NCBI GenBank assembly: GCA_022769565.1
Contig: JALEJQ010000008.1
Location: 15,833-79,832 of the forward strand
Length of the DNA: 64,000 bases
Direction: 5' to 3'
From: Oscillospiraceae bacterium
GTDB taxonomy: Bacteria; Bacillota; Clostridia; Oscillospirales; Ruminococcaceae
How positions within the stretch are numbered: the first letter of the stretch is position 1; each line of letters starts with the position of its first letter. The position numbers were made by a program, and so were the translations under genes. Below, one piece after another: positions 21,875-35,901 of the stretch. The notes beneath the pieces are model-generated. The model did no database searches. It worked only from the letters and a program-made list of their open reading frames with translations, and had not been told where the DNA came from.

Positions 21875-21910
21875 TAAAAAAGGCGGAGCAGATACATTAC
21901 CTGCTTCGCC
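21875..21910 (-). terminator. intrinsic terminator of the sulfur operon
   Basis: Minus-strand GGCGAAGCAG-loop-CTGCTCCGCC followed by TTTTTT. Confidence 0.7.
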
Positions 21911-22086: not shown

Positions 22087-23781
22087 TTACTTATCCGACC
22101 GGATAATTACCTTTCTGTAGGTATCGAAACGCACCCATTTTTCAAAGAATGCAGAACGTCCGCTTTCGGGTGCTTCGGCGTATTCCTTGAGGAATTCCTG
22201 CACCTCACCGTCAGAGGAAGCCTTTATTTCAAAGCCTCGTCCGTTCAGCAGGGGAACGCCGCCGTAGGTGTATTTCTCCGTGGGGATAATATCCTCTATC
22301 CTTCTGTCACGAACCTTAACGGAAACTCCGTCACGCAAAACGATGATGTCAAAGCTGTCGGGGTATTTGTAGCTTTCGCCCTCGGTGGGTATCTCGTCGC
22401 CAACGGTGTACGCCGTCTTGACAGGCTGGTATTTCAGAACATTAAGGCTGCTTGTGTCATAGTAGAATTCCTCGAAAATGTCACCTCTTGCGGTAAGTCC
22501 GTCCTTTTGGAAGGAAGCCTTTTCCGTGCCGGAGCCGCCCTTTTCGCTTACCTCTTCAACAACGCCGCAGGCAGAAGTCATATTCGTTACACGGTCGATA
22601 AGGATAAACTCGCCCAGTGTCTTGTGGTTGGAAAACAGGTCGGCAGGTATTGCCTCGGCAAAAAGTATGCTGCAAACGGCAATTCCGTTCTTGGAAAGGT
22701 TCTCCGCCTTGATATGCTCCCCTGTGTTTACGTCAACGGCATATTCTATATCAGTAACAACGCCCGGGATAGTCTTTGTTCCCAGCTTTACAAGATAATC
22801 CTTGCCGGGAGTAAGCTCCTCGTCGTCCATCCACAGAACGGACGCCTTTATCTTCTTGTAGACCGCCACCTCTGCACCCTTTGCAAGGACACAGCCTCTT
22901 GAAACGTCCACTTCCTTGTCAAGGGAAATAGTTACAGGCTGTCCCTTGTAAGCGGTATCCACGCTCTTGTCGGTCATAAGTATACCCTTTACAGCCGCTC
23001 TTTCGTTGCTGGGCAGGGCAACTATCTCATCGCCCACGCTTATGCTGCCTGCTTCGATCTGTCCCTGAAAGCCTCTGAATGTGCGGTCGGGGCGGCATAC
23101 CCTCTGGACGGGCATATAAAAACCCTTTTCGCTGTCGTCCGAAGCAATGTCCACCGTTTCAAGGTATTCAAGGAGGGGAACTCCGCTGTACCATTTTATG
23201 TTATCCGACTTTTGGGTAACGTTGTCGCCTTCCGTTGCGGAAAGGGGGATTATCTGCACGTTGTTAAGGGAAAGCTCCTTTTCAAGTGCTTCTATCTGTG
23301 TGCATATCTCCTTGAAGCGTTCCTCGCTGTAGCCTACAAGATCCATTTTGTTTACGGCAAAAACAAAGTATCTTATGCCCATAAGACGGCATATCCTTGC
23401 GTGTCTTCTTGTCTGCACAAGTACGCCCTGTGAAGCGTCCACAAGTATTACCGCAAGGTCGGCAAAGGAAGCGCCGACCGCCATATTTCGTGTGTATTCC
23501 TCATGACCGGGAGTGTCCGCAACGATAAAGCTGCGGTTGTCCGTTGTAAAGTATCTGTACGCAACATCTATGGTGATGCCCTGTTCACGCTCTGCCATAA
23601 GACCGTCAAGAAGAAGGGAGTAGTCTATCTTTCCGCTTCTGCTGCCCACCTTGCTGTCAAGCTCAAGTGCCTTTTCCTGGTCGGCGTAAAGCAGCTTGGA
23701 ATCGTATAAAATATGTCCGATAAGCGTTGATTTGCCGTCGTCCACGCTTCCGCAGGTTATAAATTTAAGCAAGCCTTTCAT
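22087..23781 (-). CDS. cysN: sulfate adenylyltransferase subunit 1 (CysN GTPase) with extra 153-aa C-terminal domain
   Basis: G1 GSVDDGKST, DTPGHEEY and NKMD GTPase motifs. The CysN-type end block FILIDRVTNMTSACGVV is followed by 153 residues with no P-loop. Confidence 0.85.
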   Translation of the reverse strand: MKGLLKFITCGSVDDGKSTLIGHILYDSKLLYADQEKALELDSKVGSRSGKIDYSLLLDGLMAEREQGITIDVAYRYFTTDNRSFIVADTPGHEEYTRNMAVGASFADLAVILVDASQGVLVQTRRHARICRLMGIRYFVFAVNKMDLVGYSEERFKEICTQIEALEKELSLNNVQIIPLSATEGDNVTQKSDNIKWYSGVPLLEYLETVDIASDDSEKGFYMPVQRVCRPDRTFRGFQGQIEAGSISVGDEIVALPSNERAAVKGILMTDKSVDTAYKGQPVTISLDKEVDVSRGCVLAKGAEVAVYKKIKASVLWMDDEELTPGKDYLVKLGTKTIPGVVTDIEYAVDVNTGEHIKAENLSKNGIAVCSILFAEAIPADLFSNHKTLGEFILIDRVTNMTSACGVVEEVSEKGGSGTEKASFQKDGLTARGDIFEEFYYDTSSLNVLKYQPVKTAYTVGDEIPTEGESYKYPDSFDIIVLRDGVSVKVRDRRIEDIIPTEKYTYGGVPLLNGRGFEIKASSDGEVQEFLKEYAEAPESGRSAFFEKWVRFDTYRKVIIRSDK

Positions 23782-23783
23782 TA

Positions 23784-24683
23784 TCAGAAATACCCCTCTC
23801 TCTTGCGGCGCTCCATACTTCCTGCCGCTTCATTGTCAATAACTCTCGAAGTTCTTTCGGAGGAAACGGAGCTTAATGTTTCTGCGATTATCTCATCAAG
23901 AGTGTTAGCCGTGGATTCTATTCCGCCCGTAAGAGGATAGCAGCCCAGAGTTCTGAAACGCACCGACTTCATCTGCGGCACTTCGCCCTCTTTCAAGGGA
24001 AAACGGTCGTCGTCCACCATTATAATGTTTCCGTCACGCTCCACAACGGGGCGCTCCTTGGCAAAATAAAGGGGCACAATATCAATGTTTTCACGCTTTA
24101 TGTACTGCCAGATGTCCTTTTCCGTCCAGTTGGAAATAGGGAAAACTCTTATGCTTTCGCCCTTGTTTATTTTGGTGTTGTACAGCTTCCACATTTCGGG
24201 ACGCTGGTTCTTGGGGTCCCAAGCGTGGGCGGAATTTCTGAAAGAGAATATTCTTTCCTTGGCTCTGGATTTTTCCTCATCTCTTCTGCCGCCGCCGAAA
24301 GCTGCGGTGAAGCCGTATTTGTTGAGTGCCTGCTTGAGTGCCTGTGTTTTCATAATGTCCGTGTAGGCTGCACCGTGGTCGAAGGGGTTAATGCCCTGTT
24401 TTACGCCGTCCTCGTTGATATATTCAAGCATTTCTATGCCCAGCTTCTGCGCTGTTTTGTCACGGAACTCTATCATCTCTTTAAACTTCCATGTAGTGTT
24501 AACATGAAGGAACGGGAAGGGCGGCTTTTCGGGGTAAAAGGCTTTCATTGCAAGATGAAGCATTACCGAGCTGTCCTTTCCGATAGAATAAAGCATTACG
24601 GGCTTTTCACATTCGGCTGCGACCTCTCTTATGATGTATATCGCCTCCGCTTCAAGCTCGTCAAGGTGTGAAAATTCGTTCAC
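23784..24683 (-). CDS. cysD: sulfate adenylyltransferase subunit 2
   Basis: [18 protein letters not shown]..., the PAPS-reductase-fold [12 protein letters not shown], and the end ...[12 protein letters not shown] are characteristic of CysD. Confidence 0.9.
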
Positions 24684-24695
24684 GCTGCTTCCCTC

Positions 24696-25010
24696 CTAAT
24701 ATTTGTTGGATTCTTTGGGGTCAATATCGATGTTTGTGACCGTTCCGTCGGGGCGTTCTATTACCCAGCGGAGCAGACCCTTGCTTTTTTCGGTGTGTAC
24801 CATACTTCCCGTGCCACCGATGTCTGCGCCGAGGTAAAATTTAACGGCGTTCACGGGGCATTCCTTTACGCAGGAGGTGCAGCCCCAGCAGTCCTTGGGA
24901 TATTTTATATACGCCTTGCCCGTTTCGTCGATCTTGATAAGAGTTCCGGGACAGACTTCACGGCATCTGCCGCAGCCGACGCATTTTTCTCTGTCAATCG
25001 CAATGCTCAT
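24696..25010 (-). CDS. aprB: 2x[4Fe-4S] ferredoxin, AprB-like small subunit
   Basis: Two CxxCxxCxxxCP motifs (CVGCGRCREVCP, CWGCTSCVKECP). Overlaps the upstream flavoprotein gene by 17 nt. Confidence 0.6.
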   Translation of the reverse strand: MSIAIDREKCVGCGRCREVCPGTLIKIDETGKAYIKYPKDCWGCTSCVKECPVNAVKFYLGADIGGTGSMVHTEKSKGLLRWVIERPDGTVTNIDIDPKESNKY

Positions 25011-26676
25011 AGACCTTCTGCCCCTCCTCTGTAAGCTCTCTTAAAATGATCCTTATCTCACCGTTTTCAAGGCGTGAATTAACATATTTTCTCCAGTTTT
25101 TATCGTCCTTTTCGGGGTAGTCAAGGTTTTCCGCAAAGCTGTGCCAGCGTGTTTCCTGCCGTGCTTTAAGATGTGCGATAACGCTTCGGCACACCGTCAG
25201 ACGTTCACGCAGCTCGTAAATATACATAAGCTCCTGAAAATCGTCGGCGTGAAGTCCGTCAGAAAGTGCTTCAATGCGGCGTATCTGTTCATCGGCAAGT
25301 TCAAGCTGCTTTTCGTTGAAGCGGTAGTTTGTCTTTATGCCGCCTGCATAGGAATCCATAACTGTCTGCATAGCTTCTTCAAGCTGTTCGGCAGTAAAAC
25401 GGGAGCGGTTTTCTCCCGTAAAGCGTTCTATCTCAGCAGCGTGGGCGTTTATCTCCCTTTCTTCAATGGGAGCGCCGCTGTTTTCCGCAATATATTCCGC
25501 TGCGGAAAGCGCCGCTATCTCGCCCTCGGCAAGTGCGCCCGTAACATACTTCTGAGGGCAGCCCCCTGCAACGTCACCTGCCGCAAACAGACCCTTTATG
25601 GTGGTTGCTCTTTTTGTGTCCACCCAGTAGCCGCTTGCTGTGTGTCCGCCCACTATGTAAGGCTCTGTGCCCTCTATTTCAACGTTCTGTTCCGAGGGCT
25701 TTTTGCCGCTTTCTATCCAGCGTATGGTCTGTGAGGGAGCCATGTTAAGATATGCTTTAAGCAGGGATTCCTCCTTTTCGGGGGAGATGCCTTCGGTTTT
25801 AAGGTAACAGGGACCTCTGCCCTCGATGTTTTCCATAACGGTTCCGTAAACTCTTTCGGAGGTGGTAAGACCGTACTTGGTTTCGTAGATCTCGCCGAGA
25901 GAATTTATCTGCTTTGCGCCTGCGCCCTGTGCAAGAGTACCCGTTGGAGCGATGGTGTCCTTGCAGCGCAGAGCGATGAAACGCATTTCAAAGGTGGTCA
26001 TTTCTGCACCGTGCTTTATACCCATTGCATAGCCTGCACCGGTGTTGAAGGGGGGATACCACATCTTATGCCGTGAAAAGCCCGGGTTGTTTGGCTTGTA
26101 CAGACCTGCCGCACCGCCCGTTGCGATAATTACCGCATTTGCTTCTATAACGTAAAAAGTATCGTTTTCTATGCCTATACCGAAAGCACCGTTTATTTTG
26201 TTGTCATAAACGGAAAAGTCGGTGATGTTAACACGGTTCAGCACCGTAACATTCGGCAGCTTGCTTACTGCATCCGCAAGGATAGGCTTGATGTTTTCGC
26301 CGTTTATTTTTATGTTGCGGTTTCCTCTGGCAACGTATTTTCCGTTTTCATCTTTAAGGATAACAAGTCCAAGCTGTTCAAGCCGCTCGGTTACCTTGTT
26401 AAGGCGTTCAGACATAGTGTAAAGCAGGTCGTCGCGCACAATGCCGTCGGCGTCCTTTCTTGCATAGTCAACATAGTCCTTCGGCGTTCTGCCCTCGGTG
26501 ATGTAGGCGTTGAGGGCGTTCACACCTGCGGCAAGACAGCCGCTTCGCTTAATGTTCGCCTTTTCGCAGATAAGCACCCTTGCATCTGAATTTTCCGCAA
26601 GGGTAAGAGCCGCATAACAGCCTGCCGTTCCGCCGCCGATAATAAGTATATCAGTTTTAAGTCGTTCTGTTTTCAT
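24994..26676 (-). CDS. aprA: FAD flavoprotein, adenylylsulfate (APS) reductase alpha-like
   Basis: TDILIIGGGTAGC dinucleotide fold. KRSGCLAAGVNALNAYI and DYVDYARKD...VRDDL parallel remembered AprA blocks. Located between trxB and cysDN. Confidence 0.65.
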   Translation of the reverse strand: MKTERLKTDILIIGGGTAGCYAALTLAENSDARVLICEKANIKRSGCLAAGVNALNAYITEGRTPKDYVDYARKDADGIVRDDLLYTMSERLNKVTERLEQLGLVILKDENGKYVARGNRNIKINGENIKPILADAVSKLPNVTVLNRVNITDFSVYDNKINGAFGIGIENDTFYVIEANAVIIATGGAAGLYKPNNPGFSRHKMWYPPFNTGAGYAMGIKHGAEMTTFEMRFIALRCKDTIAPTGTLAQGAGAKQINSLGEIYETKYGLTTSERVYGTVMENIEGRGPCYLKTEGISPEKEESLLKAYLNMAPSQTIRWIESGKKPSEQNVEIEGTEPYIVGGHTASGYWVDTKRATTIKGLFAAGDVAGGCPQKYVTGALAEGEIAALSAAEYIAENSGAPIEEREINAHAAEIERFTGENRSRFTAEQLEEAMQTVMDSYAGGIKTNYRFNEKQLELADEQIRRIEALSDGLHADDFQELMYIYELRERLTVCRSVIAHLKARQETRWHSFAENLDYPEKDDKNWRKYVNSRLENGEIRIILRELTEEGQKVYEHCD

Positions 26677-26693
26677 AATTAATTCCTTTTTTT

Positions 26694-26767
26694 GAGTTTT
26701 GTGGTTTCCGTAAGGAAATCGAGGCGGCAGCCGAAGAAACAAAACTCGAAGTTTGAATTTCAAACTT
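26694..26767 (-). repeat. intercistronic structured element (pair with 31818-31900)
   Basis: GAGTTTTGT...ACAAAACTC stem enclosing TTTCCGTAAGGAAA and CGAGGCGGCAGCCGAAG, plus a second small hairpin. Lies between the trxB stop and the aprA start. Confidence 0.7.
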
Positions 26768-27682
26768 TTACCGCCTGTTCTCCGTCAGATACTTCTGAAC
26801 GGAAGAAATACTGTTTGCACCGTCCGCAGCTGCAGTTATTACCTGCCGAAGAGCCTTTGTCCGCACATCTCCTGCGGCGAAAATGCCCTTTGCGGAGGTA
26901 ACGCAGTCCTCTCCTGCAATAATATACCCGTTTGCATCAAGCTCGGCAATGCCCTTTAATGCTCCGCTATTTGGTATAGTGCCGACTGCCGCAAAAACGC
27001 TGTGAACGGGAAGAGCTTCTTCCTGTCCGTTACGGCTTATCCGCAGGGCTTCCACACGTTTTTCTCCCGTTATTTCAAGGGGAACGGCGTTAAGGATAAT
27101 TTCAATATTGCTTACCTCCGACACCTGCTTCTGAAGCAGCCTGTTTGCACGGAAAGTATCTCTGCGGTGGATAAGATATACCTTTTCGGCAGCTTTGGAA
27201 AGATATAAAGCGTCCCCGAGAGCCGTATCTCCGCCGCCTATGACCGCAGCGGTCTTGCCCTTGCAGAAAGCTCCGTCGCATACTGCGCAGTAGGACACGC
27301 CTTTGCCGGAAAACTCCGCTTCGCCCTTTATATCAAGCCTGCGGTGGGAGGCTCCTGCGGCGTAAACTATGGTTTTTGTTTCAAAAGCCGTTCCGTCTGC
27401 AAGAGTTACCTTATAACCGCTGTTTTCCGCAGAAATTTCCGAAACCTCACCCTCGTAAAACTCCGTTCCAAGAGCTTCGGCGTGGGATCTGAACCTTTCG
27501 CCGAGGTCAAAGCCGTTTTCGCCGTAAAGTCCGAGATAATTGTCCACACGCTCGCTTTCGGCTATCTGTCCCGTGCCGCCGTATTCCTTTTCGATAAGGA
27601 TAAAATCAAGCTCCGCACGTTTTGCGTAGACTGCGGCAGAAAGTCCTGCAGGACCGCTTCCGATGATTATGGTATCGTACAT
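26768..27682 (-). CDS. trxB: thioredoxin-disulfide reductase
   Basis: IIIGSGPAGLSAAVYA, redox-active CAVCDG, and GGGDTA NADPH motif. Confidence 0.9.
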   Translation of the reverse strand: MYDTIIIGSGPAGLSAAVYAKRAELDFILIEKEYGGTGQIAESERVDNYLGLYGENGFDLGERFRSHAEALGTEFYEGEVSEISAENSGYKVTLADGTAFETKTIVYAAGASHRRLDIKGEAEFSGKGVSYCAVCDGAFCKGKTAAVIGGGDTALGDALYLSKAAEKVYLIHRRDTFRANRLLQKQVSEVSNIEIILNAVPLEITGEKRVEALRISRNGQEEALPVHSVFAAVGTIPNSGALKGIAELDANGYIIAGEDCVTSAKGIFAAGDVRTKALRQVITAAADGANSISSVQKYLTENRR

Positions 27683-27686
27683 TTTA

Positions 27687-28112
27687 TTATTCCTTTTCCG
27701 TTTTTTCTATAACAAGCCCCTCATTTTCCGCAGTATCGCCGCTTATTTTAAAGGAGTTGAGAACGGGAGAGTTCCTGTCCATAAGAGAAAGAATAAGGTA
27801 GCTTGCCTTGCTGTCGAAAGCCAGCCGCTTATCCTCTTCCGAAGGCCTTGAGGGGGATTCGGGGTGTGAATGCCAGTTTCCGAGAGGCACAAGTCCCTCC
27901 GCCCTCATATCCTTTACCGCCGCAAGCTGTTCTTTCGGGTCAAGGGAAAAATGCTCGTTGGAATGGTCGGTGTTGGTGAGAAGATAGACCTTCCGTATGA
28001 GCTTTTCATCGCCCTTTATCTCTCCGGCAATAAGTCCGCAGGCTTCTTCCGGCAGACAGCTTTCGGCGTGCTTTAGAATTATTATGTAATCCGATTCCGA
28101 TATTTTTATCAT
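27687..28112 (-). CDS. JAMM/MPN+ metalloprotease (HcyD/Mec-like)
   Basis: E...HSHPESPSRPSEED matches the JAMM H-x-H-x7-S-xx-D motif. 4-nt overlap with the ThiF-like gene. Confidence 0.8.
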   Translation of the reverse strand: MIKISESDYIIILKHAESCLPEEACGLIAGEIKGDEKLIRKVYLLTNTDHSNEHFSLDPKEQLAAVKDMRAEGLVPLGNWHSHPESPSRPSEEDKRLAFDSKASYLILSLMDRNSPVLNSFKISGDTAENEGLVIEKTEKE

Positions 28113-28921
28113 AAGTGTACTCCGTCACATTCAGCCTGCTCGTAATCGATAAGCTCCGTAATAGTGGGATGCTCGCCGCATACTGCGCAGTTTTTTGTTT
28201 CCGCAGGCAGCTTTACCTTGCGGAATTCCATTTTAAGCGCATCGTATGTGAGAAGATAACCCGTAAGAAGATCGCCGACTCCGAGAATGTATTTTATTGC
28301 TTCCATAGCCTGCAAGCTGCCTATTACGCCGCCCATTGCGCCTATTACGCCTGCCTGCTTACAGGTGGGAACAGCGTCCTTCGGGGGTGGTTCTTTGAAT
28401 ACACAGCGGTAACAGGGTCCCTGTCCGGGAACGTAGGTCATAAGCTGACCCTTGAAGCGTATGATACCGGCGTGTGAGAAGGGCTTTTTCGCCATAACGC
28501 AGGCGTCGTTGATAAGGAACTTTGCAGGGAAATTGTCCGTGCCGTCAATAATGAAGTCGTAATCTGCAATAAGCTCCATAATATTTTCGCTTGTAACAAA
28601 GGTGCGGTAGGTGTTTACCTTAACATCGGGGTTCATAGCCTCCATAGTTTCCTTTGCGGACTGTACCTTTGCCTTGCCAACGTCCTTTGTGGCGTGGATT
28701 ATCTGCCGCTGGAGGTTGGAGAGGTCAACTTCGTCTGCGTCTGCAATGCCGATGGTGCCTATACCTGCCGCCGCAAGATACATTGCCGCAGGAGCGCCCA
28801 GACCGCCTGCTCCGATAATAAGCACCTTTGCATTCAGCAGCTTTTTCTGACCCTTTGCGCCAACTTCTTTAAGAATTATGTGGCGTGAGTAGCGTTCAAG
28901 CTGATCGTTTGTAAAAGCCAT
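28109..28921 (-). CDS. ThiF/MoeB/HesA-family E1-like adenylyltransferase (HcyF-like)
   Basis: RYSRHIIL..., GAGGLGAP nucleotide loop, DLSNLQRQ, and two CxxC pairs (CYRC, CAVC). Confidence 0.85.
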   Translation of the reverse strand: MAFTNDQLERYSRHIILKEVGAKGQKKLLNAKVLIIGAGGLGAPAAMYLAAAGIGTIGIADADEVDLSNLQRQIIHATKDVGKAKVQSAKETMEAMNPDVKVNTYRTFVTSENIMELIADYDFIIDGTDNFPAKFLINDACVMAKKPFSHAGIIRFKGQLMTYVPGQGPCYRCVFKEPPPKDAVPTCKQAGVIGAMGGVIGSLQAMEAIKYILGVGDLLTGYLLTYDALKMEFRKVKLPAETKNCAVCGEHPTITELIDYEQAECDGVHL

Positions 28922-29127
28922 TATCTGCCGCCTCCCATGAAATAGAGAAATTCAACGCTGTCGCCGTCCTTGATGACAGTTGAATCAAAGGCACCGCTTT
29001 CAATGAATTCATCGTTGATGGTGACCGTTACATACTGGGGTGTTTCCACATTTTCCTGCTCAATGAGCTGCGCTACCGTAAGGCCGTCAGCAGCTTCTTT
29101 TTTTACTCCTGCAACTGTGATATTCAT
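28921..29127 (-). CDS. ThiS/MoaD-family sulfur-carrier protein with C-terminal GGGR (HcyS-like)
   Basis: 68 aa, beta-grasp size. Ends ...VEFLYFMGGGR, so one residue lies beyond the Gly-Gly. The stop overlaps the E1 start. Confidence 0.75.
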   Translation of the reverse strand: MNITVAGVKKEAADGLTVAQLIEQENVETPQYVTVTINDEFIESGAFDSTVIKDGDSVEFLYFMGGGR

Positions 29128-29141
29128 AATGATCTCTCCTG

Positions 29142-29459
29142 TTATTTAAGATTTTCTATTACTGCCGCAATATCGGCTTTTTTTATTGGACTTCCAAGTC
29201 TTGAAACTTCATCGCCGTTTTTAAAGAATACGATAGTGGGAACGGAGGTTACCCCGTACTGCTCCGCAAGCTCCGTATCAAAGTTGATGTTTATCTTAAC
29301 TGCAAAAACGCTTTCGCTGTACTCCTCTTCTATCTCCGCAAGGACGGGTGAGAGCCGCTTGCAGGGAACGCAGCTGTCGGAATAAAAATCCGCAAGCACC
29401 AGTCCCTTTGCCTGCAGCACCTCGCCGCCGAAGTTTTCTCCGCTTACACGAACAGCCAT
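29142..29459 (-). CDS. thioredoxin (CVPC active site)
   Basis: 105 aa. FYSDSCVPCKRLSP sits at the canonical WCGPC position. The C-terminal VPT...F block is thioredoxin-like. Confidence 0.8.
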   Translation of the reverse strand: MAVRVSGENFGGEVLQAKGLVLADFYSDSCVPCKRLSPVLAEIEEEYSESVFAVKININFDTELAEQYGVTSVPTIVFFKNGDEVSRLGSPIKKADIAAVIENLK

Positions 29460-29705
29460 TTAATCACCGACCTTTTTTACAATAAGTGTGAATGTTCCGT
29501 CGCCGTTGTCGTTAAGTTTAAGTATCTGGTGACCCTCTTCCTTAATGCTTCTCGGCACGTTCTGTACGGGTTCGCCGTCATTCATTCTTACCGCAAGTAT
29601 CTGCCCGTCGTCAAGCTCTTCAAGCGCAACCTTTGCCTTTACAAAAGTCGTGGGGCAGACCACATCGGTTATATCCACGCTGTCGTCAATATTGAAATCA
29701 GCCAT
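29460..29705 (-). CDS. TusA/SirA-like sulfurtransferase
   Basis: 81 aa. DITDVVCPTTFVKAKVAL sits where TusA has D..G..CP.P..K. Confidence 0.65.
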   Translation of the reverse strand: MADFNIDDSVDITDVVCPTTFVKAKVALEELDDGQILAVRMNDGEPVQNVPRSIKEEGHQILKLNDNGDGTFTLIVKKVGD

Positions 29706-30558
29706 TGTAAACCTCCATTATCATCTCTGTGAATTTATCTTTTCCCACTCTGTCAAGAGTGAACTTGAATCTTTCGCCGGGATTTGCGTTCTCTGCAAAG
29801 AACTCAATTGCAGCGTCGCATATCGCAAGCAGCTTTTCCTTGTCCTCAATAAAGGGTATAACCGCTTCGCCCTTGCTTATGCTGTTGCCGAAAAGTCCGC
29901 CGAAGGAAACTATGTAGCCGTGAACGGTGTCCCAGGCTTCTGTGGGGCAGGACTTGACACATCTTCCGCAGAAATTGCACTTGCTCTCGTCAACGGTTAT
30001 TTTGCCGTCCTTTATTTCAATTGCACCGCTGCGGCAAGCCTTTTCGCACACTCCGCAGCTTATGCAGGCGTCCTCTTTCCATTTTACCTTTATGCCGCCC
30101 TTGATGCCAAGGTCGTTTTCCTCTGCTTTAAGGCAGTTGTTCTGACAGCCTGTGATGCCGAACTTGAACTTGTGGGGAAGCTCCCTTGCAAAATATCTTT
30201 CGTCAAGCTCCTTTGCAAGAGCGTAGGTGTCGATACAGCCGCTTGGACATATAGCCTCGCCCTGACAGGCTGTAACGGTGCGCACTCTCGGACCGCATAC
30301 TCCCGGTTCAACGCCGCCCTCGGCAAGAGCAGCCTTTACCTCGTCAATGTCGTCAAGCTTGATGAAGGGTATCTCCACGCTCTGTCTTGATGTAAGATGA
30401 ACGTGACCGTCGCCGAATTTTTCCGCAACCTCCGCAATTTTCGCAAGCTGAACGGCGCTCAGATTTCCTCCCACAACTCTCAGCCTGAGAGAAAAGTTAT
30501 TCTTCTGCTTCTGGCGCATAAAGCCGCCCTTTTTAAGTGTAGCGTAATCAACAGCCAT
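29698..30558 (-). CDS. small siroheme/[4Fe-4S] sulfite reductase with ferredoxin insert
   Basis: Siroheme-cluster cysteines TACQGEAIC (C-x5-C) and GCQNNC (C-x3-C). Ferredoxin insert CISCGVCEKAC...CNFCGRCVKSCP. Confidence 0.75.
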   Translation of the reverse strand: MAVDYATLKKGGFMRQKQKNNFSLRLRVVGGNLSAVQLAKIAEVAEKFGDGHVHLTSRQSVEIPFIKLDDIDEVKAALAEGGVEPGVCGPRVRTVTACQGEAICPSGCIDTYALAKELDERYFARELPHKFKFGITGCQNNCLKAEENDLGIKGGIKVKWKEDACISCGVCEKACRSGAIEIKDGKITVDESKCNFCGRCVKSCPTEAWDTVHGYIVSFGGLFGNSISKGEAVIPFIEDKEKLLAICDAAIEFFAENANPGERFKFTLDRVGKDKFTEMIMEVYNG

Positions 30559-30573
30559 ATCAATTTCCTCCGT

Positions 30574-31797
30574 TTATTTTTTTGCAGCCTGTGCAAAATC
30601 CTCAATAAGATCCTCCGGATCTTCAATTCCTATGCTTACCCTTATGGAATCATCGTAAACTCCGGCGCTTTCCTTCTGCTGCGGCGTGCTGTGGGTGTAA
30701 ATAGTGCTTGCAGGGTGTATAACAAGCGTCCGCACATCGCCGATGTTTGTGGCAATTGAAGCGTACCGCAGAGAATTTATCAGCTTAAAGGCATTTTCCT
30801 TGCTGCCTGCCCGAACAGTCAGTATCGCTCCGCCTTTTCCGCCGAACTGCTCCTTTACAAGTCCGTAATAGGGGTTGTCGGGAAGTGCGGGATAGTTGAC
30901 CTCTATTCCGGGAACGTCTTTAAGATATTCCGCAAGTTTTAAAGCGTTGGAACAGATGCGCTCCATTCGCAGCCCCAGAGTTTCAAGTCCTACCGAGTTG
31001 AGAAAAGCATTTGCAGGCGCAAGACAGCAGCCTGTGTTTCGCCATATGCCGTTCCTCAGCTTTGCAAGATAAGCCAGCTTGCCGAATTTTTCATAGCCTT
31101 CAAAGCCGGGGTACCTTGAAGTGTCCCATTTGAAGCTGCCGCTGTCGATCACAACGCCGCTTATTGCGTTTCCGCCGCCGTTTATGTACTTTGAAGAGGA
31201 GTGGACAACAATGTCTGCGCCGTATTCAAAGGGATGGATAAGATAGGGCGTTGCGGTAGTGCTGTCGGCGATAAGCGGTATGCCGCGGCTGTGTGCAAGC
31301 TCCGCAACAGACTTCACATCAACAACGTTCAGCTTGGGATTTCCGATAAGCTCAGTAAATACAGCCTTGGTTTTATCCGTTATAAGAGGCTCTATGCTTT
31401 CCGCAGTAACATCGTCCGTGAATCTTGTCGTTATACCGAATGCTTCAAGGTCTTTAAACAGGTCAAGAGTTCCTCCGAACAATCCCGAACCTGCGATTAT
31501 CTCATCACCCGATTGCAGAATGTTCAGCAAAGACATTGTAACAGCCGCCATGCCCGATGAACAGGCAACTGCGCCGATACCGTTTTCCAGAGCGGATATC
31601 CTTTTTTCAAAGGAATCAACCGTTGGATTGCTTATCCTTGAATAAGCGTAGCCGTAAGCCTTGCTGTTGAATACCGCTTCCAGCTTTTCCGCCGACTCGT
31701 GTGCAAAAGCGCTTGTCTGACAGACAGGCATTACCGTTGCACCCGTTGCAGGATCTCCGCTGAAGCTCTTATGCAGCAGAGCAGTATTGAAATTCAT
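30574..31797 (-). CDS. metY: O-acetylhomoserine sulfhydrylase-type PLP enzyme
   Basis: Cys/Met-metabolism PLP family: YSRISNPT, SSGMAA, and the PLP lysine block HSSSKYINGGGN. Confidence 0.85.
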   Translation of the reverse strand: MNFNTALLHKSFSGDPATGATVMPVCQTSAFAHESAEKLEAVFNSKAYGYAYSRISNPTVDSFEKRISALENGIGAVACSSGMAAVTMSLLNILQSGDEIIAGSGLFGGTLDLFKDLEAFGITTRFTDDVTAESIEPLITDKTKAVFTELIGNPKLNVVDVKSVAELAHSRGIPLIADSTTATPYLIHPFEYGADIVVHSSSKYINGGGNAISGVVIDSGSFKWDTSRYPGFEGYEKFGKLAYLAKLRNGIWRNTGCCLAPANAFLNSVGLETLGLRMERICSNALKLAEYLKDVPGIEVNYPALPDNPYYGLVKEQFGGKGGAILTVRAGSKENAFKLINSLRYASIATNIGDVRTLVIHPASTIYTHSTPQQKESAGVYDDSIRVSIGIEDPEDLIEDFAQAAKK

Positions 31798-31817
31798 ATT
31801 TTAAATCATTCCTTTTT

Positions 31818-31900
31818 GAGTTTTGTGGTTTGCGAAGCAAATCGAGGCGACAGCCGAAGAAACAAAACTCGGAGTTTAAAAATCGAAGATTTTTAAATTT
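31818..31900 (-). repeat. intercistronic structured element (pair with 26694-26767)
   Basis: Same GAGTTTTGT...ACAAAACTC frame, with inner hairpin TTTGCGAAGCAAA (compensated relative to TTTCCGTAAGGAAA). Lies between the cysA stop and the metY start. Confidence 0.7.
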
Positions 31901-31916
31901 ATCACCGATTTCTGTT

Positions 31917-32975
31917 TTAGATAAATACCGATTCTTCCTGAATAGTCTTGTTTTCAAGAAGATAGGTCTTTTCGCCTGCCGTAACGAACATACGGTATAT
32001 GAACACATCTACCTTTTCTCCGACGGAAACAACATTTTCATCAAAGCCCCGTCTTGCGTTAAGAAGTACGCCGTTGACCCTGACGGAAAGCTCTATGCTG
32101 CTTCCTCTGAATGATACCCGTTCCACAACTCCCTCGGAGGAGGAGCTTCTGTATTTCTGCACCTCGTTTTTCTTTGATACCTTGATAAATTCGGGGCGCA
32201 CTATGGCGTTTTCCGCTCCCTCGATCTTGTCAAAGGTGTGGAAGCTGCCGTACTCCTTGAAAATGGAGGGCTGACCGAAAAATGAAGCGGTAAAAGCGGT
32301 CTCGGGCTTGCTGTAGACCTCCGCAGGAGTGCCTATCTGCTCGATGCGTCCCTTGTTTGTAATGATTATCTCATCCGCAACCTCTATGGCTTCGTCCTGG
32401 TCGTGGGTAACGAAAATGCTTGTTACTCCCAGCTTGCTTATCATATCCTTCAGCCAGCTGCGAAGCTCCTGCCTGACCTTTGCGTCAATGGCGGCAAAGG
32501 GTTCGTCAAGAAGCAGCAGCTTGGGGTTAGGAGCAAGTGCTCTTGCAAAAGCAACTCTCTGCCGCTGACCGCCTGAAAGCTGACTTGGATAACGCTTTTC
32601 CAGCCCTTCAAGTCCTATGAGCTTCACAAGCTCGGAAACTCTTTCTTTTATGAACTCCTTGTCCTTTTTCTGCACCTTTAGTCCGAAGGCAATGTTGTCG
32701 TAAACCGTCATATAGCGGAAAAGGGCGTAATTCTGGAACACAAAGCCTATGCCTCTTTCGCTTGCGGGAACGTTGTTCACTACCTTGCCGTTAATGATTA
32801 TCTCGCCGCTGTCGGGCGTTTCAAGACCTGCTATCATTCGGAGAATGGTGGTCTTGCCGCTGCCGCTGGGACCTAAAAGTCCTATCAGCTTGCCCTCTTC
32901 AATGCCGAAGCTTACGTTGTCGGAGGCTTTGTAGCTGCCGAAATTTTTATTTATGTTTTTCAGTTCAACGTACAT
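31917..32975 (-). CDS. cysA: sulfate/thiosulfate ABC transporter ATP-binding protein
   Basis: Walker A GPSGSGKTT, signature LSGGQRQR, Walker B LLLDEP, and a C-terminal regulatory TOBE-like domain. Confidence 0.9.
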   Translation of the reverse strand: MYVELKNINKNFGSYKASDNVSFGIEEGKLIGLLGPSGSGKTTILRMIAGLETPDSGEIIINGKVVNNVPASERGIGFVFQNYALFRYMTVYDNIAFGLKVQKKDKEFIKERVSELVKLIGLEGLEKRYPSQLSGGQRQRVAFARALAPNPKLLLLDEPFAAIDAKVRQELRSWLKDMISKLGVTSIFVTHDQDEAIEVADEIIITNKGRIEQIGTPAEVYSKPETAFTASFFGQPSIFKEYGSFHTFDKIEGAENAIVRPEFIKVSKKNEVQKYRSSSSEGVVERVSFRGSSIELSVRVNGVLLNARRGFDENVVSVGEKVDVFIYRMFVTAGEKTYLLENKTIQEESVFI

Positions 32976-33798
32976 TTTCCGACTCTCTCTTTCCTATGTA
33001 TTCCACAACGCTTTTTGCGATAAGTATCAGCACCGCCATCATTACCAGTATGGAGGACACCGCAAAGGCAGGAACATACTTGAATTCGTTGAAAAGTATC
33101 TCAACGTGGAGAGGAAGGGTGTTTGTCTTTCCTCTCAGATGTCCCGAAAGAACGGACACCGCTCCGAATTCTCCCATGGCTCTTGCCGCACAAAGCACTA
33201 CGCCGTAGAGGAACGCCCATTTGATATGGGGAAAGGTTATTTTTGTGAATATGGTAAAGCCTTTAGCTCCCATAAGTGCCGCAGCCTCTTCCTCGTCCGT
33301 ACCCTGCGATTCAAGTACGGGTATAAGCTCTCTTGAAATAAAGGGGAAGGTCACGAAAACCGTTGCAAGAATAATTCCGGGCACCGCAAAAACTATCTTT
33401 ATGTCCAAGCTTTCAAGCAGAGGATAAAGGGGACTTTGCCGTCCGAAGGTCAGCACGAATATCAGACCTGCAATGACGGGGGATACCGTTACGGGAAGGT
33501 CGATAAGTGTGCAGAGCAGCTTTTTTCCCTTGAAGCGGAACTTTGTCACCGCCCACGCCGCAAAAAGCCCGAACACCGTGTTCACCGCAACTGCGCAGAG
33601 CGTTGCTTCAACGGTAAGCAGTATCGCTTTGACCGTGTATTTGTCCGCAACAGCCTTTATGTATACCTCAAAGCCTTGTTTCAGTGCCTCGGCAATTACC
33701 GTTATAAGAGGAAGCACAAGCATAAGGAATACAAATATGACGCTTATGCTTATAAGCAGTATCTTTACTGCCTTGGAGCCTTTTGATTCCTTATGCAC
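32965..33798 (-). CDS. cysW: sulfate ABC transporter permease
   Basis: BPD-type permease with an EAA loop (EEAAALMGA). Position and size match CysW. Confidence 0.85.
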   Translation of the reverse strand: MHKESKGSKAVKILLISISVIFVFLMLVLPLITVIAEALKQGFEVYIKAVADKYTVKAILLTVEATLCAVAVNTVFGLFAAWAVTKFRFKGKKLLCTLIDLPVTVSPVIAGLIFVLTFGRQSPLYPLLESLDIKIVFAVPGIILATVFVTFPFISRELIPVLESQGTDEEEAAALMGAKGFTIFTKITFPHIKWAFLYGVVLCAARAMGEFGAVSVLSGHLRGKTNTLPLHVEILFNEFKYVPAFAVSSILVMMAVLILIAKSVVEYIGKRESENVR

Positions 33799-33799
33799 A

Positions 33800-34642
33800 T
33801 CAGTTTCCCCCTTTGAGTATTTTTGAATTTCTTATCTGAATGAGATTTACAAGAAAAAGTATAAGGAATGAAGCAAAAAGCATTACAAGAGCTATCGCCG
33901 AAGCACTGGAGTAGTCGTATTCCTGAAGCTCCGACATGATTATCAGCGGCGTTATTTCCGTTTCGTAGGGCTTGTTTCCTGCGATAAATACAACGCTTCC
34001 GTATTCGCCGAAGCATCTTCCGAACGCAAGACCGAAGCCTGTGAACACCGCAGGCATTATCTCCGGGAAGATAACTCTGCGGAAGATCTTGCCTCTGTCC
34101 GCTCCAAGCACCACAGCCGCTTCTTCATATGCAGGGTCAAGCTTTTCAAGCACCGGCTGGACAGCTCTTACCACAAAGGGGATCCCGATAAATACCATTG
34201 CAATGGTTATTCCTATCCTTGTGTAAGCTATCTTTATGCCGAACCTGCTAAAGAAACCGCCGACAAGACCCGTATCCGCCGTCAGAGAGGTAAGGGCAAT
34301 GCCTGCTACCGCCGTGGGCAGAGCAAATGGCAGCTCGATCATTCCGTCCAGCAGACGCTTGAAGGGAAAATCGTATCTCACCAGCACCCAAGCAAGGACA
34401 ACTCCCATAACTGCGTTAATGAGCGAAGCTATAAAAGCTGTGATGAAGCTCACCTCGAAGCTGGCGAGAACTCTCGGTCTTGTTATGGTGTCTATCACAT
34501 CCGAAAGGCTCATATTTGCGGCAAATACCGCAAGCGAAGCCAGAGGGATAAGCACTATCACGCTGAGTACCGAGAGCGTTACGCCCATTGACAGCCCGAA
34601 TCCGGGGATAACTCTCTTATTTGCTCTCTTCATTTTCATCAT
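33800..34642 (-). CDS. cysT: sulfate ABC transporter permease
   Basis: BPD-type permease with an EAA loop (YEEAAVVLGA). ATGA overlap with the sbp stop. Confidence 0.85.
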   Translation of the reverse strand: MMKMKRANKRVIPGFGLSMGVTLSVLSVIVLIPLASLAVFAANMSLSDVIDTITRPRVLASFEVSFITAFIASLINAVMGVVLAWVLVRYDFPFKRLLDGMIELPFALPTAVAGIALTSLTADTGLVGGFFSRFGIKIAYTRIGITIAMVFIGIPFVVRAVQPVLEKLDPAYEEAAVVLGADRGKIFRRVIFPEIMPAVFTGFGLAFGRCFGEYGSVVFIAGNKPYETEITPLIIMSELQEYDYSSASAIALVMLFASFLILFLVNLIQIRNSKILKGGN

Positions 34643-35682
34643 TCCGATTTTTCGTAAATTTCATCGAACACTCCGCCGTCGGCAAAGTGCTTTGTCTGAG
34701 CCTCGTCCCAGCCGCCGAAATCCTGTATTGTAACAAGATTTATGTCAAGGTTGAAAACTCCAGCGTATTCCTGAAGTATATCTGCGTTAGAGGGTCTGTA
34801 GTAGTTGTCGCCTGCGATACGCTGCGCTTCATCGGAATAGAGGTACTGCAAATATTCGGCAGCAACATCTCTTGTTCCTCTGTCATCAACTACCTTGTCA
34901 ACGACAGCAACGGAGGGCTGTGCAAGAATACTTACGCTCGGTGTGATTATCTCATAATCGTCGGGATAGTCCTGAATGGAAAGGTAGGCTTCGTTCTCCC
35001 AGGCAAGAAGAACATCACCCTGTCCGTTTTCAACGAAGGTCGTGGTAGCGCCTCTTGCACCGGAATCAAGCACCAGAACGTTCTGATAGAGCTTCTTGAC
35101 AAAGTCCTTTATCTGAGCCTCATCGCCGCCGTACAGCTTGTCGGCATATGCCCACGCTGCAAGGTAGTTCCACCTTGCGCCGCCTGAGGTCTTGGGGTTG
35201 GGAGTAATAACGCCCACGCCGTCATTCACAAGGTCGTTCCAGTCCCGGATGTTCTTGGGATTGCCTTTTCTTACAAGGAAAACGATTGTGGAGGTGTAGG
35301 TGGAGCTGTCGTTGGCAAATTCGCTTACCCAACCGTCCTCGATAAGTCCTGCATCTCTTATGGCGTTTACATCATACTCAAGAGCAAGGGTAACAACATC
35401 CGCTTCAAGACCGTTTGCAACTTCAAGCGCCTGCTTGCCTGAGCCGCCGTGGGACTGTGTTATCTCAACGTCCTGTCCTGTCTTTTCCTTCCAATGCTCG
35501 GCAAATATCTTGTTATAGGCTTCGTAAAGCTCTCTTGTGGGGTCGTATGAAACATTGGTTATTGAAACGCTGTCGACGGAGCCGCTTGCTTCGCCCTTTT
35601 CCGAAGAGCAGCCTGTAAGTCCGGTCATTCCGGTAATAAGAAGTGCGGCTGCTACAGATATTTTCACAAAATTATTTTTCAT
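34639..35682 (-). CDS. sbp: sulfate-binding lipoprotein
   Basis: Lipobox LTGCSS. SHGGSGKQA and the family-wide NPKTSGGARW block are typical of Sbp/CysP. ATG at 35682 follows GGAAGG. Confidence 0.85.
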   Translation of the reverse strand: MKNNFVKISVAAALLITGMTGLTGCSSEKGEASGSVDSVSITNVSYDPTRELYEAYNKIFAEHWKEKTGQDVEITQSHGGSGKQALEVANGLEADVVTLALEYDVNAIRDAGLIEDGWVSEFANDSSTYTSTIVFLVRKGNPKNIRDWNDLVNDGVGVITPNPKTSGGARWNYLAAWAYADKLYGGDEAQIKDFVKKLYQNVLVLDSGARGATTTFVENGQGDVLLAWENEAYLSIQDYPDDYEIITPSVSILAQPSVAVVDKVVDDRGTRDVAAEYLQYLYSDEAQRIAGDNYYRPSNADILQEYAGVFNLDINLVTIQDFGGWDEAQTKHFADGGVFDEIYEKSE

Positions 35683-35872
35683 AATAAAAAACCTTCCTTT
35701 CACGGCTTGAAAATCATTTTTCAGACCGTTTGCTTCGTTTGATGTTTGTTTTGTTGTCCGCAAAAAATTTTTAACATCGTCCGCAGCGGAAGTTCGCTCT
35801 CAGGAGCGTTTCAAACATATTTTTCATATTCTTTCCCTCAATTCTTACCAACCTACTTGGTAGGTTAGGTTT

Positions 35873-35901
35873 AGTATAACATTATTTGCCTACTTTGTCA
35901 A
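35873..35901 (-). promoter_or_regulatory. sigma-A-type promoter (TTGACA-17-TATACT) of the sulfur operon
   Basis: Minus-strand -35 at 35896-35901 and -10 at 35873-35878. The palindrome AACCTACttgGTAGGTT at 35850-35866 lies just downstream. Confidence 0.6.

Follow-up and report, generated by a model that had tools for sequence, protein, structure and literature searches.

The window analysed here, 64,000 nt of the genome of a gut or rumen Oscillospiraceae bacterium (assembly GCA_022769565.1, contig JALEJQ010000008.1; all positions follow window numbering), carries on its minus strand a sulfate-assimilation operon with six closely packed genes. They encode a TusA-like sulfur carrier, a thioredoxin (Trx), a ThiS/HcyS-like carrier, an E1 adenylyltransferase, a JAMM metalloprotease and a thioredoxin reductase (TrxB). 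Judged from the sequences and their neighbourhoods, the operon probably harbours a HcyS-type thiocarboxylate route to homocysteine in which Trx and TrxB would reduce an acyl-disulfide, and we favour this reading with restrained confidence. The HcyS-type thiocarboxylate pathway with TusA is known; the dedicated Trx/TrxB pair in the module appears to be new here.

The six genes, from that of the TusA-like protein to trxB, fill exactly positions 26768-29705 (-), with inter-gene spacing of -4 to +14 nt. The TusA/Trx, Trx/ThiS and JAMM/TrxB spacings are 0, 14 and 4 nt, and ThiS/E1 and E1/JAMM overlap by 1 and 4 nt; the gene of sulfite reductase (SiR) overlaps that of TusA by 8 nt. The original prediction for this stretch had described a block with nearly no intergenic space, a TusA-like protein (VVCPTTF) and a thioredoxin with a non-canonical CVPC site. 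All three descriptions were borne out, the protein assignments by the PF01206 score and TusA fold of the first protein and by the PF00085 match and DSCVPCKR site of the second (Table 1).

By gene content and motifs, the block belongs to the HcyS/HcyF/HcyD/MetY class. The FMGGG of the carrier is conserved in 84 orthologues, where it is followed by 1-5 variable residues. The E1 protein lacks a rhodanese domain and has the Zn CxxC pairs; its Cys188 aligns with the crossover-loop Cys of Uba4 in an alignment to the Uba4, ThiF and MoeB structures. MetY, encoded farther upstream, matched the Wolinella succinogenes enzyme (3RI6) with 314 bits, as compared to 381 bits for ordinary MetYs. It is no closer to 3RI6 than to ordinary MetYs, and the idea that it is specifically orthologous to the W. 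succinogenes enzyme was rejected. A search for the W. succinogenes locus with the 3RI6 sequence gave only a Campylobacteraceae contig of 4 kb that carries Sbp and MetY and no cluster. Formation of the carrier thiocarboxylate (carrier-COSH) and its use by MetY for homocysteine synthesis are predicted only.

The TusA-like protein is a member of family PF01206 by its profile score and by the two-layer alpha/beta fold of its AlphaFold (AF2) model (predicted local distance difference test, pLDDT, 82). Its only cysteine, Cys17 in DVVCPTTFV, is placed by the model just ahead of helix 1 (residues 19-29). Foldseek comparison of the model with YeeD, DSY4693 (SirA-like, Desulfitobacterium) and Escherichia coli TusA gave template-modelling (TM) scores of 0.78-0.84. 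Cys17-Pro18 is invariant among the relatives and the second Pro of CPxP is replaced, giving CPTTF here and CP[TVILM]TF in relatives. A genome search revealed no second PF01206 gene, and the operon TusA is the sole copy.

The thioredoxin scored 88.3 bits against the TrxA equivalog TIGR01068, under the cut-off of 96.8. Trp is missing from its active site, SCVPC, and the protein retains the buried Asp and a cis-Pro (VPT). The active-site consensus among module loci is D[ST]C[VI]PCK. CVPC was rejected as a module-unique signature, since CVPC thioredoxins have been mentioned elsewhere and CV[TAG]C takes its place in the more distant Trx copies of the module. TrxB reached 328.2 bits against TIGR01292, slightly below the cut-off of 343.45. 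Elsewhere, the genome assembly (2.57 Mb, estimated 100% complete) encodes a canonical WCGPC Trx and a second TrxB-like protein, each 36-37% identical to the operon copy, so that the operon Trx and TrxB can be regarded as dedicated paralogues. The second TrxB-like gene (genome contig C72:6903-7895) has CALC, and CRRDKFHG instead of HRRxxxR; the canonical NADPH motif is thus confined to the operon copy of TrxB. Outside the operon, the genome also encodes one more MetY, two CysK proteins and three aminotransferases of class V. The operon TrxB is 56-94% identical to module-locus copies of other families and only 34-44% identical to homologues from genomes that belong to the bacterium's own family or order and lack the module. 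TrxB thus travels with the module, and its vertical inheritance as a housekeeping gene was rejected as unlikely.

From the observed gene content, motifs, fold and gene co-travel, we infer the following chemical steps. The carrier would be made with a C-terminal cap (FMGGG-R), which JAMM would remove. The rhodanese-less E1 would adenylate the carrier and may also hold it as a thioester on Cys188. The TusA-like protein would substitute for the rhodanese domain, with a persulfide on Cys17 whose sulfur would come from the enzyme encoded just upstream, namely SiR here and an encapsulated cysteine desulfurase in relatives. Attack of the TusA persulfide on the activated carrier would yield a carrier-CO-S-S-TusA acyl-disulfide. 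The SC(V/I)PC Trx, recycled by the NADPH-type TrxB, would then supply two electrons, giving carrier-COSH and free TusA. Finally, MetY would couple the thiocarboxylate to O-acetylhomoserine, and JAMM would free homocysteine.

Two published observations bear on this scheme. The final step of Urm1 thiocarboxylation in the Uba4/Urm1 system has been described as 'reductive cleavage', with no reductant named (PMC12954526). A Trx whose gene lies between those of TusA and the carrier, along with its own reductase, is an obvious candidate. Rhodanese-less ThiS/JAB/E1 sulfate-assimilation operons were reported to 'always contain a SirA', predicted to be rhodanese-like, and their E1 is always without rhodanese (Iyer, Burroughs, Aravind 2006; PMC1779556). 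The original prediction had put forward TusA-persulfide transfer with Trx/TrxB reduction as one of two readings, either of which would be a new wiring for the pathway. Novelty does not extend to the TusA part of this reading, which was predicted in 2006 (PMC1779556), and appears to hold for the Trx/TrxB part: the literature searched contained no description of a dedicated SC(V/I)PC Trx and NADPH-TrxB inside the module, nor of a pairing of the module with desulfurase encapsulins.

Module loci were collected with five sources: the window E1 as a query; an E1 of another Clostridia genome, 71% identical to it, as a further query; JAMM neighbourhoods in 399 genomes sampled evenly from the class (7 genomes with a match); AprA neighbourhoods in the same 399 genomes (8 with a match, 3 overlapping the JAMM set); and a MetY query taken from the 3RI6 alignment. 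The best 80 matches per scan, of roughly 600 or more module loci, were used. Removal of duplicates left 93 loci with at least 5 kb on each side of E1. TusA is a separate gene in 92 of these. The remaining locus, L081, has a module with Trx and a 359-aa Rhodanese-TusA-DsrE fusion encoded directly after MetY (L081:7186-8265); a fusion of this type is a classical relay for persulfide sulfur. Absence of TusA from L081 was therefore rejected, and TusA is universal in the module (93/93). Its loci belong to Bacillota, Fibrobacterota, Bacteroidota, Spirochaetota, Pseudomonadota, Actinomycetota, Ignavibacteriota and one methanogen. The survey extends the 2006 SirA observation to 93 loci in at least eight phyla.

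The other components are distributed less evenly. MetY is found near the module in 78 of the 93 loci, SiR in 69, AprA in 40, TrxB (at least 40% identical) in 35 and a family-2A encapsulin in 21, and Trx lies inside the module in 48. SiR is encoded immediately upstream of TusA in 66/69 SiR-bearing loci and Trx immediately downstream of it in 45/48 Trx-bearing loci; TrxB is always accompanied by Trx (35/35). Since dozens of genomes repeat the same order, the arrangement is not a chance juxtaposition. Trx-bearing loci come mostly from Oscillospiraceae (32) and Lachnospiraceae (6), with one Treponema in addition. No in-operon Trx occurs in Fibrobacter, Negativicutes, Clostridium, Desulfitobacterium, Thermoanaerobacterium, Succinivibrionaceae, Prevotella/Bacteroidales, Eggerthellaceae, an Ignavibacteriota genome and Methanosphaerula. 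On the E1 tree, state changes numbered 4 for Trx, 11 for TrxB, 17 for AprA, 9 for SiR and 8 for the encapsulin. Thus, of the three genes whose conservation with the module was in question, TusA is conserved throughout, and conservation of Trx and TrxB is limited to one module sub-clade (48/93 and 35/93). Trx/TrxB is an optional, lineage-specific add-on to the module.

A second Bacillota lineage (L107, L111, L112, L114 and L117) has a different TrxR-family gene following MetY. Its product (L107:13978-14901) is about 30% identical to the window TrxB, with CTTC and no HRR NADPH motif, so that it may depend on ferredoxin or on some other donor; the gene has no Trx gene as a neighbour. This independent recruitment is in line with the view that a disulfide reductase is needed repeatedly. 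In L069 (5611-6922), as well as in L066 and L073, TrxB is divergently transcribed upstream of MetY, beside a second, atypical thioredoxin with a TCAHC site.

The module E1 is unusually well conserved. Its identity amounts to 85-99% among Oscillospiraceae, Lachnospiraceae and Fibrobacter; for the more distant Bacteroidota, Spirochaetota, Pseudomonadota, Actinomycetota and the archaeon Methanosphaerula, the figure is 62-77%. Over at least eight phyla, identity is 62-99%. The module is nonetheless present in only 7 of the 399 sampled genomes of the class. The pattern resembles that of a cassette passed on repeatedly by horizontal transfer.

The survey also bears on whether Trx and TrxB act in turnover at all. 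They might serve maintenance only, keeping TusA Cys17, E1 Cys188 and the readily oxidized thiocarboxylate reduced or stripping excess persulfide as sulfide. The absence of an in-operon Trx from 45 of the 93 loci, the frequent gain or loss of TrxB and the known depersulfidase activity of thioredoxin systems (PMC12954526) all agree with such a role. However, the Trx slot between TusA and the carrier genes is fixed (45/48 loci), the Trx active site is distinct and conserved, and the TrxB lineage moves with the module. These features suggest a specific partner rather than general upkeep, and we consider a pure maintenance role unlikely.

The input side of the module varies. SiR alone is present in 65 loci, a family-2A encapsulin with cysteine desulfurase alone in 17, and both in 4; SiR and the encapsulin are nearly exclusive alternative inputs. 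The encapsulin shell of the relatives is SrpI-like (PF19307, E 2e-94) and is paired with a cysteine desulfurase with a long N-terminus. In rumen Ruminococcus-like metagenome-assembled genomes the gene order is CysE-E1'-Enc-CyD-MetY-TusA-Trx-ThiS-E1-JAMM-TrxB-CysK (Enc, encapsulin; CyD, cysteine desulfurase), and in Bacteroidales it is MetY-TusA-Enc-CyD-ThiS-E1-JAMM. Cysteine desulfurases yield persulfide (S0) sulfur, and its conversion to a thiocarboxylate requires two electrons. Together, the encapsulated desulfurase input and the fusion in L081 point to persulfide (zero-valent) sulfur and, hence, to a two-electron reductant. The gene neighbourhoods also suggest a route from encapsulin-held sulfur to homocysteine.

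Encapsulin and desulfurase genes were recorded beside or inside the module in L005 (1882-12684), L006, L015, L058, L065 and L135; in Fibrobacter (L011, L014, L016, L024, L025 and L129); in Bacteroidales (L139, L141, L142, L151, L155, L157, L163 and L164); in Succinivibrionaceae (L115 and L119); and in Selenomonas (L110). Additionally, L005 (3328-4101), L058 (3395-4883), L011 (11448-13152), L016, L024, L025, L115 and L119 have, next to the encapsulin genes, another E1 that is divergent (39-53% identical) and is frequently accompanied by an additional JAMM (24-30% identical). It may represent a second carrier system, perhaps for cysteine.

These inputs help to judge another explanation, in which TusA is not the sulfur donor of the carrier. 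Sulfide from SiR would attack the carrier adenylate directly, TusA would assist or regulate SiR, and Trx/TrxB would serve some other need of the operon. SiR-TusA is indeed the tightest adjacency of the family (66/69 loci, with the 8-nt overlap in the window), and the in vitro pathway of W. succinogenes reportedly used sulfide. Yet TusA is kept in the 17 loci with cysteine desulfurase and without SiR, the TusA of L081 is fused to rhodanese and DsrE, and E1 always lacks a rhodanese domain where TusA is present (PMC1779556). We regard direct attack by sulfide as quite doubtful.

The original prediction had also offered Trx/TrxB/NADPH as the electron donor of the AprAB-like reductase encoded next to the block. 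By the AprA model and the 2x[4Fe-4S] AprB, this pair is assigned to the adenylyl-sulfate (APS) reductase class. TrxB adjoins aprA in the window, neither a Qmo-type partner nor a CysH-type reductase is apparent, and Trx-dependent APS reduction exists among CysH-type enzymes. The genome search for a CysH-type reductase (about 240 aa) with PF01507 matched only CysD and, weakly and in split form, a 392-aa frame on another contig. The distribution of the genes, however, speaks against this role. AprA is absent within 10 kb in 21 Trx-bearing and 12 TrxB-bearing module loci, and 17 AprA-bearing module loci have no TrxB. Three sulfate-transporter/AprAB-like clusters without the carrier module (L087, L088 and L089) have no Trx or TrxB within about 6-20 kb. 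AprA of L087 is 82% identical to that of the window; CysDN was seen in L087 and L088 only, L089 being truncated. In the window, a 91-nt repeat element parts trxB from aprA, and its twin copy lies at the other end of the MetY..TrxB block. AprAB enzymes form a FAD-sulfite adduct and pass electrons via the Fe-S clusters of AprB to FAD; they are not known to have a thiol-disulfide step, and their established chemistry offers no disulfide for Trx. Since Trx/TrxB is kept without AprAB and is missing from module-less AprAB clusters, the donor role is unsupported and, in our opinion, highly improbable. Distant AprAB-like pairs (56-64% identical) were also seen in L090 (8938-17485) and L091, where six unidentified genes form a different conserved neighbourhood and genes for sulfate assimilation are lacking in the vicinity.

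The TusA-persulfide and Trx/TrxB scheme proposed here fits every comparative result. Several points nevertheless weigh against it. First, the 45 of 93 loci without an in-operon Trx imply that the pair is dispensable or replaceable by a housekeeping Trx. Second, the TusA-like motif is CPTT, as opposed to the canonical CPxP. Third, in the work of Krishnamoorthy and Begley in 2011, free sulfide was reportedly enough for thiocarboxylation of W. succinogenes HcyS in vitro. Fourth, a siroheme SiR normally releases sulfide (S2-), which is unable to persulfidate TusA without an oxidant, so that the SiR context of the window does not by itself account for the TusA persulfide. Finally, independent-pair sign tests of Trx or TrxB versus AprA on the E1 tree had too few supported pairs, and p<0.05 was unreachable; for this reason no significance is claimed, and the argument against the AprAB donor role rests on the natural 'deletion' configurations.

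With regard to the persulfide source, TusA may be loaded by a genomic cysteine desulfurase after CysK has made cysteine. A bolder variant, suggested by analogy with DsrAB-DsrC, is that SiR reduces sulfite by four electrons only and hands zero-valent sulfur to TusA Cys17, the last two electrons coming from Trx/TrxB/NADPH and sulfur being protein-bound throughout. We consider this rather improbable. If true, protein-bound sulfur from sulfite to homocysteine would explain why SiR and an S0-producing desulfurase are interchangeable, and the module of the relatives would be an exit route for encapsulin-stored sulfur.

The operon as a whole spans about 14 kb, from a predicted promoter (35901-35873) to a terminator-like hairpin (21905-21887), with the gene order Sbp, CysT, CysW, CysA, MetY, SiR, TusA-like, Trx, carrier, E1, JAMM, TrxB, AprA, AprB, CysD and CysN. 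The TrxB-AprA gap is 91 nt, given an AprA ATG at 26676 (the NF005331 alignment start), and the CysA-MetY gap is about 120 nt. Both contain an intercistronic element of about 75 nt, whose two 80%-identical copies flank the MetY..TrxB block on both sides. The elements are structured, with an outer stem GAGTTTTGT...ACAAAACTC and an inner hairpin. No convincing internal terminator was found inside the operon, and an Rfam scan of window positions 17-40 kb at the gathering threshold revealed no riboswitch or leader. CysN carries about 150 additional C-terminal residues (window 22087-22548) past the CysN model: TIGR02034 stops near residue 408, and alignment to NF004035, the CysNC model, reaches residue 413 only.

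Table 1. Features of the sulfate-assimilation operon in the window, listed in the direction of transcription.
Feature	Position	Strand	Match or remark
Best sigma-70-like promoter, 5' of sbp	35873..35901	-	TTGACA-17-TATACT with TG; consensus match only
Sulfate ATP-binding cassette transporter (Sbp, CysT, CysW, CysA)	31917..35763	-	profile matches
Intercistronic repeat copy 2, CysA-MetY gap	31798..31916	-	flanks MetY..TrxB block with copy 1
MetY-type O-acetylhomoserine sulfhydrylase	30574..31797	-	PF01053, 370 bits
Small siroheme SiR with inserted 2x[4Fe-4S] ferredoxin domain (AsrC/Dsr-like)	29698..30558	-	profile matches
TusA-like sulfur carrier, 81 aa	29460..29705	-	PF01206, 68.5 bits (cut-off 28.6)
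Thioredoxin, 105 aa	29142..29459	-	PF00085, 83.5 bits; DSCVPCKR
ThiS/HcyS-like carrier, 68 aa	28921..29127	-	PF02597, TIGR01683; FMGGG and R cap
E1 adenylyltransferase (ThiF/MoeB/Uba4 type), 270 aa	28109..28921	-	ThiF domain only
JAMM/Prok-JAB metalloprotease, 141 aa	27687..28112	-	HSHPESPSRPSEED fits HxHx7Sx2D
Low-Mr thioredoxin reductase TrxB, 304 aa	26768..27682	-	CAVC, GGGDTA, HRRDTFRA (NADPH type)
Intercistronic repeat copy 1, TrxB-AprA gap	26677..26767	-	80% identical to copy 2
AprA-like APS reductase flavoprotein	24994..26676	-	NF005331, 963 bits (cut-off 557)
AprB-like 2x[4Fe-4S] subunit, 104 aa	24696..25010	-	TIGR02060, 60 bits, below cut-off 135
CysD and CysN (ATP sulfurylase)	22087..24683	-	profile matches
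Terminator-like hairpin, 3' of cysN	21887..21905	-	predicted

The proposed wiring would be of relevance beyond this operon. For ThiS-, MoaD-, Urm1- and CysO-type carriers, the physiological reductant of the reductive cleavage is unassigned, and the operon-encoded Trx/TrxR offers a concrete candidate. The operon could also serve as a minimal gene set for reconstituting thiocarboxylate formation. The module itself has the appearance of a mobile cassette, found in at least eight phyla, which can be combined with sulfate reduction or, alternatively, with a cysteine desulfurase in an encapsulin. In the latter case, encapsulin sulfur storage would be linked to methionine synthesis in abundant fibre degraders of the rumen and gut, such as Ruminococcus, Fibrobacter and Prevotella.

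Among known systems, the HcyS cluster of W. succinogenes shares with the operon a capped ThiS-fold carrier, a rhodanese-less ThiF-like E1, JAMM and MetY, as well as the presence of sulfite reductase and sulfate-activation genes within one cluster. SirA/TusA has been given for the HcyS-type operon class, W. succinogenes included (PMC1779556). The operon described here differs in the inserted dedicated Trx and TrxB and in the AprAB-like APS reductase.

The published operons of family 2A desulfurase encapsulins (SrpI) have only rhodanese and serine acetyltransferase as accessories (PMC8049743, PMC10836720). The module-linked encapsulins of the relatives have TusA, Trx/TrxB, the carrier, E1, JAMM and MetY as neighbours, with TusA in the place of the published rhodanese. 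Encapsulin genes of this family adjoin the module in relatives but not in the window.

The TusA-like protein shares the TusA fold with its counterpart in the E. coli IscS-TusA relay (TM 0.80-0.84 to 3LVJ_C and 1DCJ), and in both the single Cys lies at the N-terminal end of helix 1. As in the IscS-TusA relay and the Rhd-TusA-DsrE (Rhd, rhodanese) relays of sulfur oxidisers, TusA of module relatives has a cysteine desulfurase as its partner or is part of a fusion with Rhd and DsrE. These relays use CPxP, whereas the module TusA has CP[TVI]TF and, in addition, a strongly conserved GEPxxNVP[RK]S loop. Its proposed acceptor is the ThiS-like carrier, in contrast to TusBCD or DsrEFH in the relays.

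With 202 bits, Uba4 is the best PDB sequence match of the E1 adenylation domain, and E1 has kept the crossover-loop Cys. In the Uba4-Urm1/MOCS3 and MoeZ-CysO systems, the E1 has a fused rhodanese, while here a separate TusA protein would act as the persulfide carrier. The proposed chemistry is the same as in Uba4-Urm1 and MoeZ-CysO, that is, persulfide attack on the activated carrier followed by reductive cleavage (PMC12954526). The reductant, unknown for those two systems, would be encoded in the operon itself. By analogy, the block would work like Uba4 or MoeZ, with a free TusA replacing the rhodanese domain.

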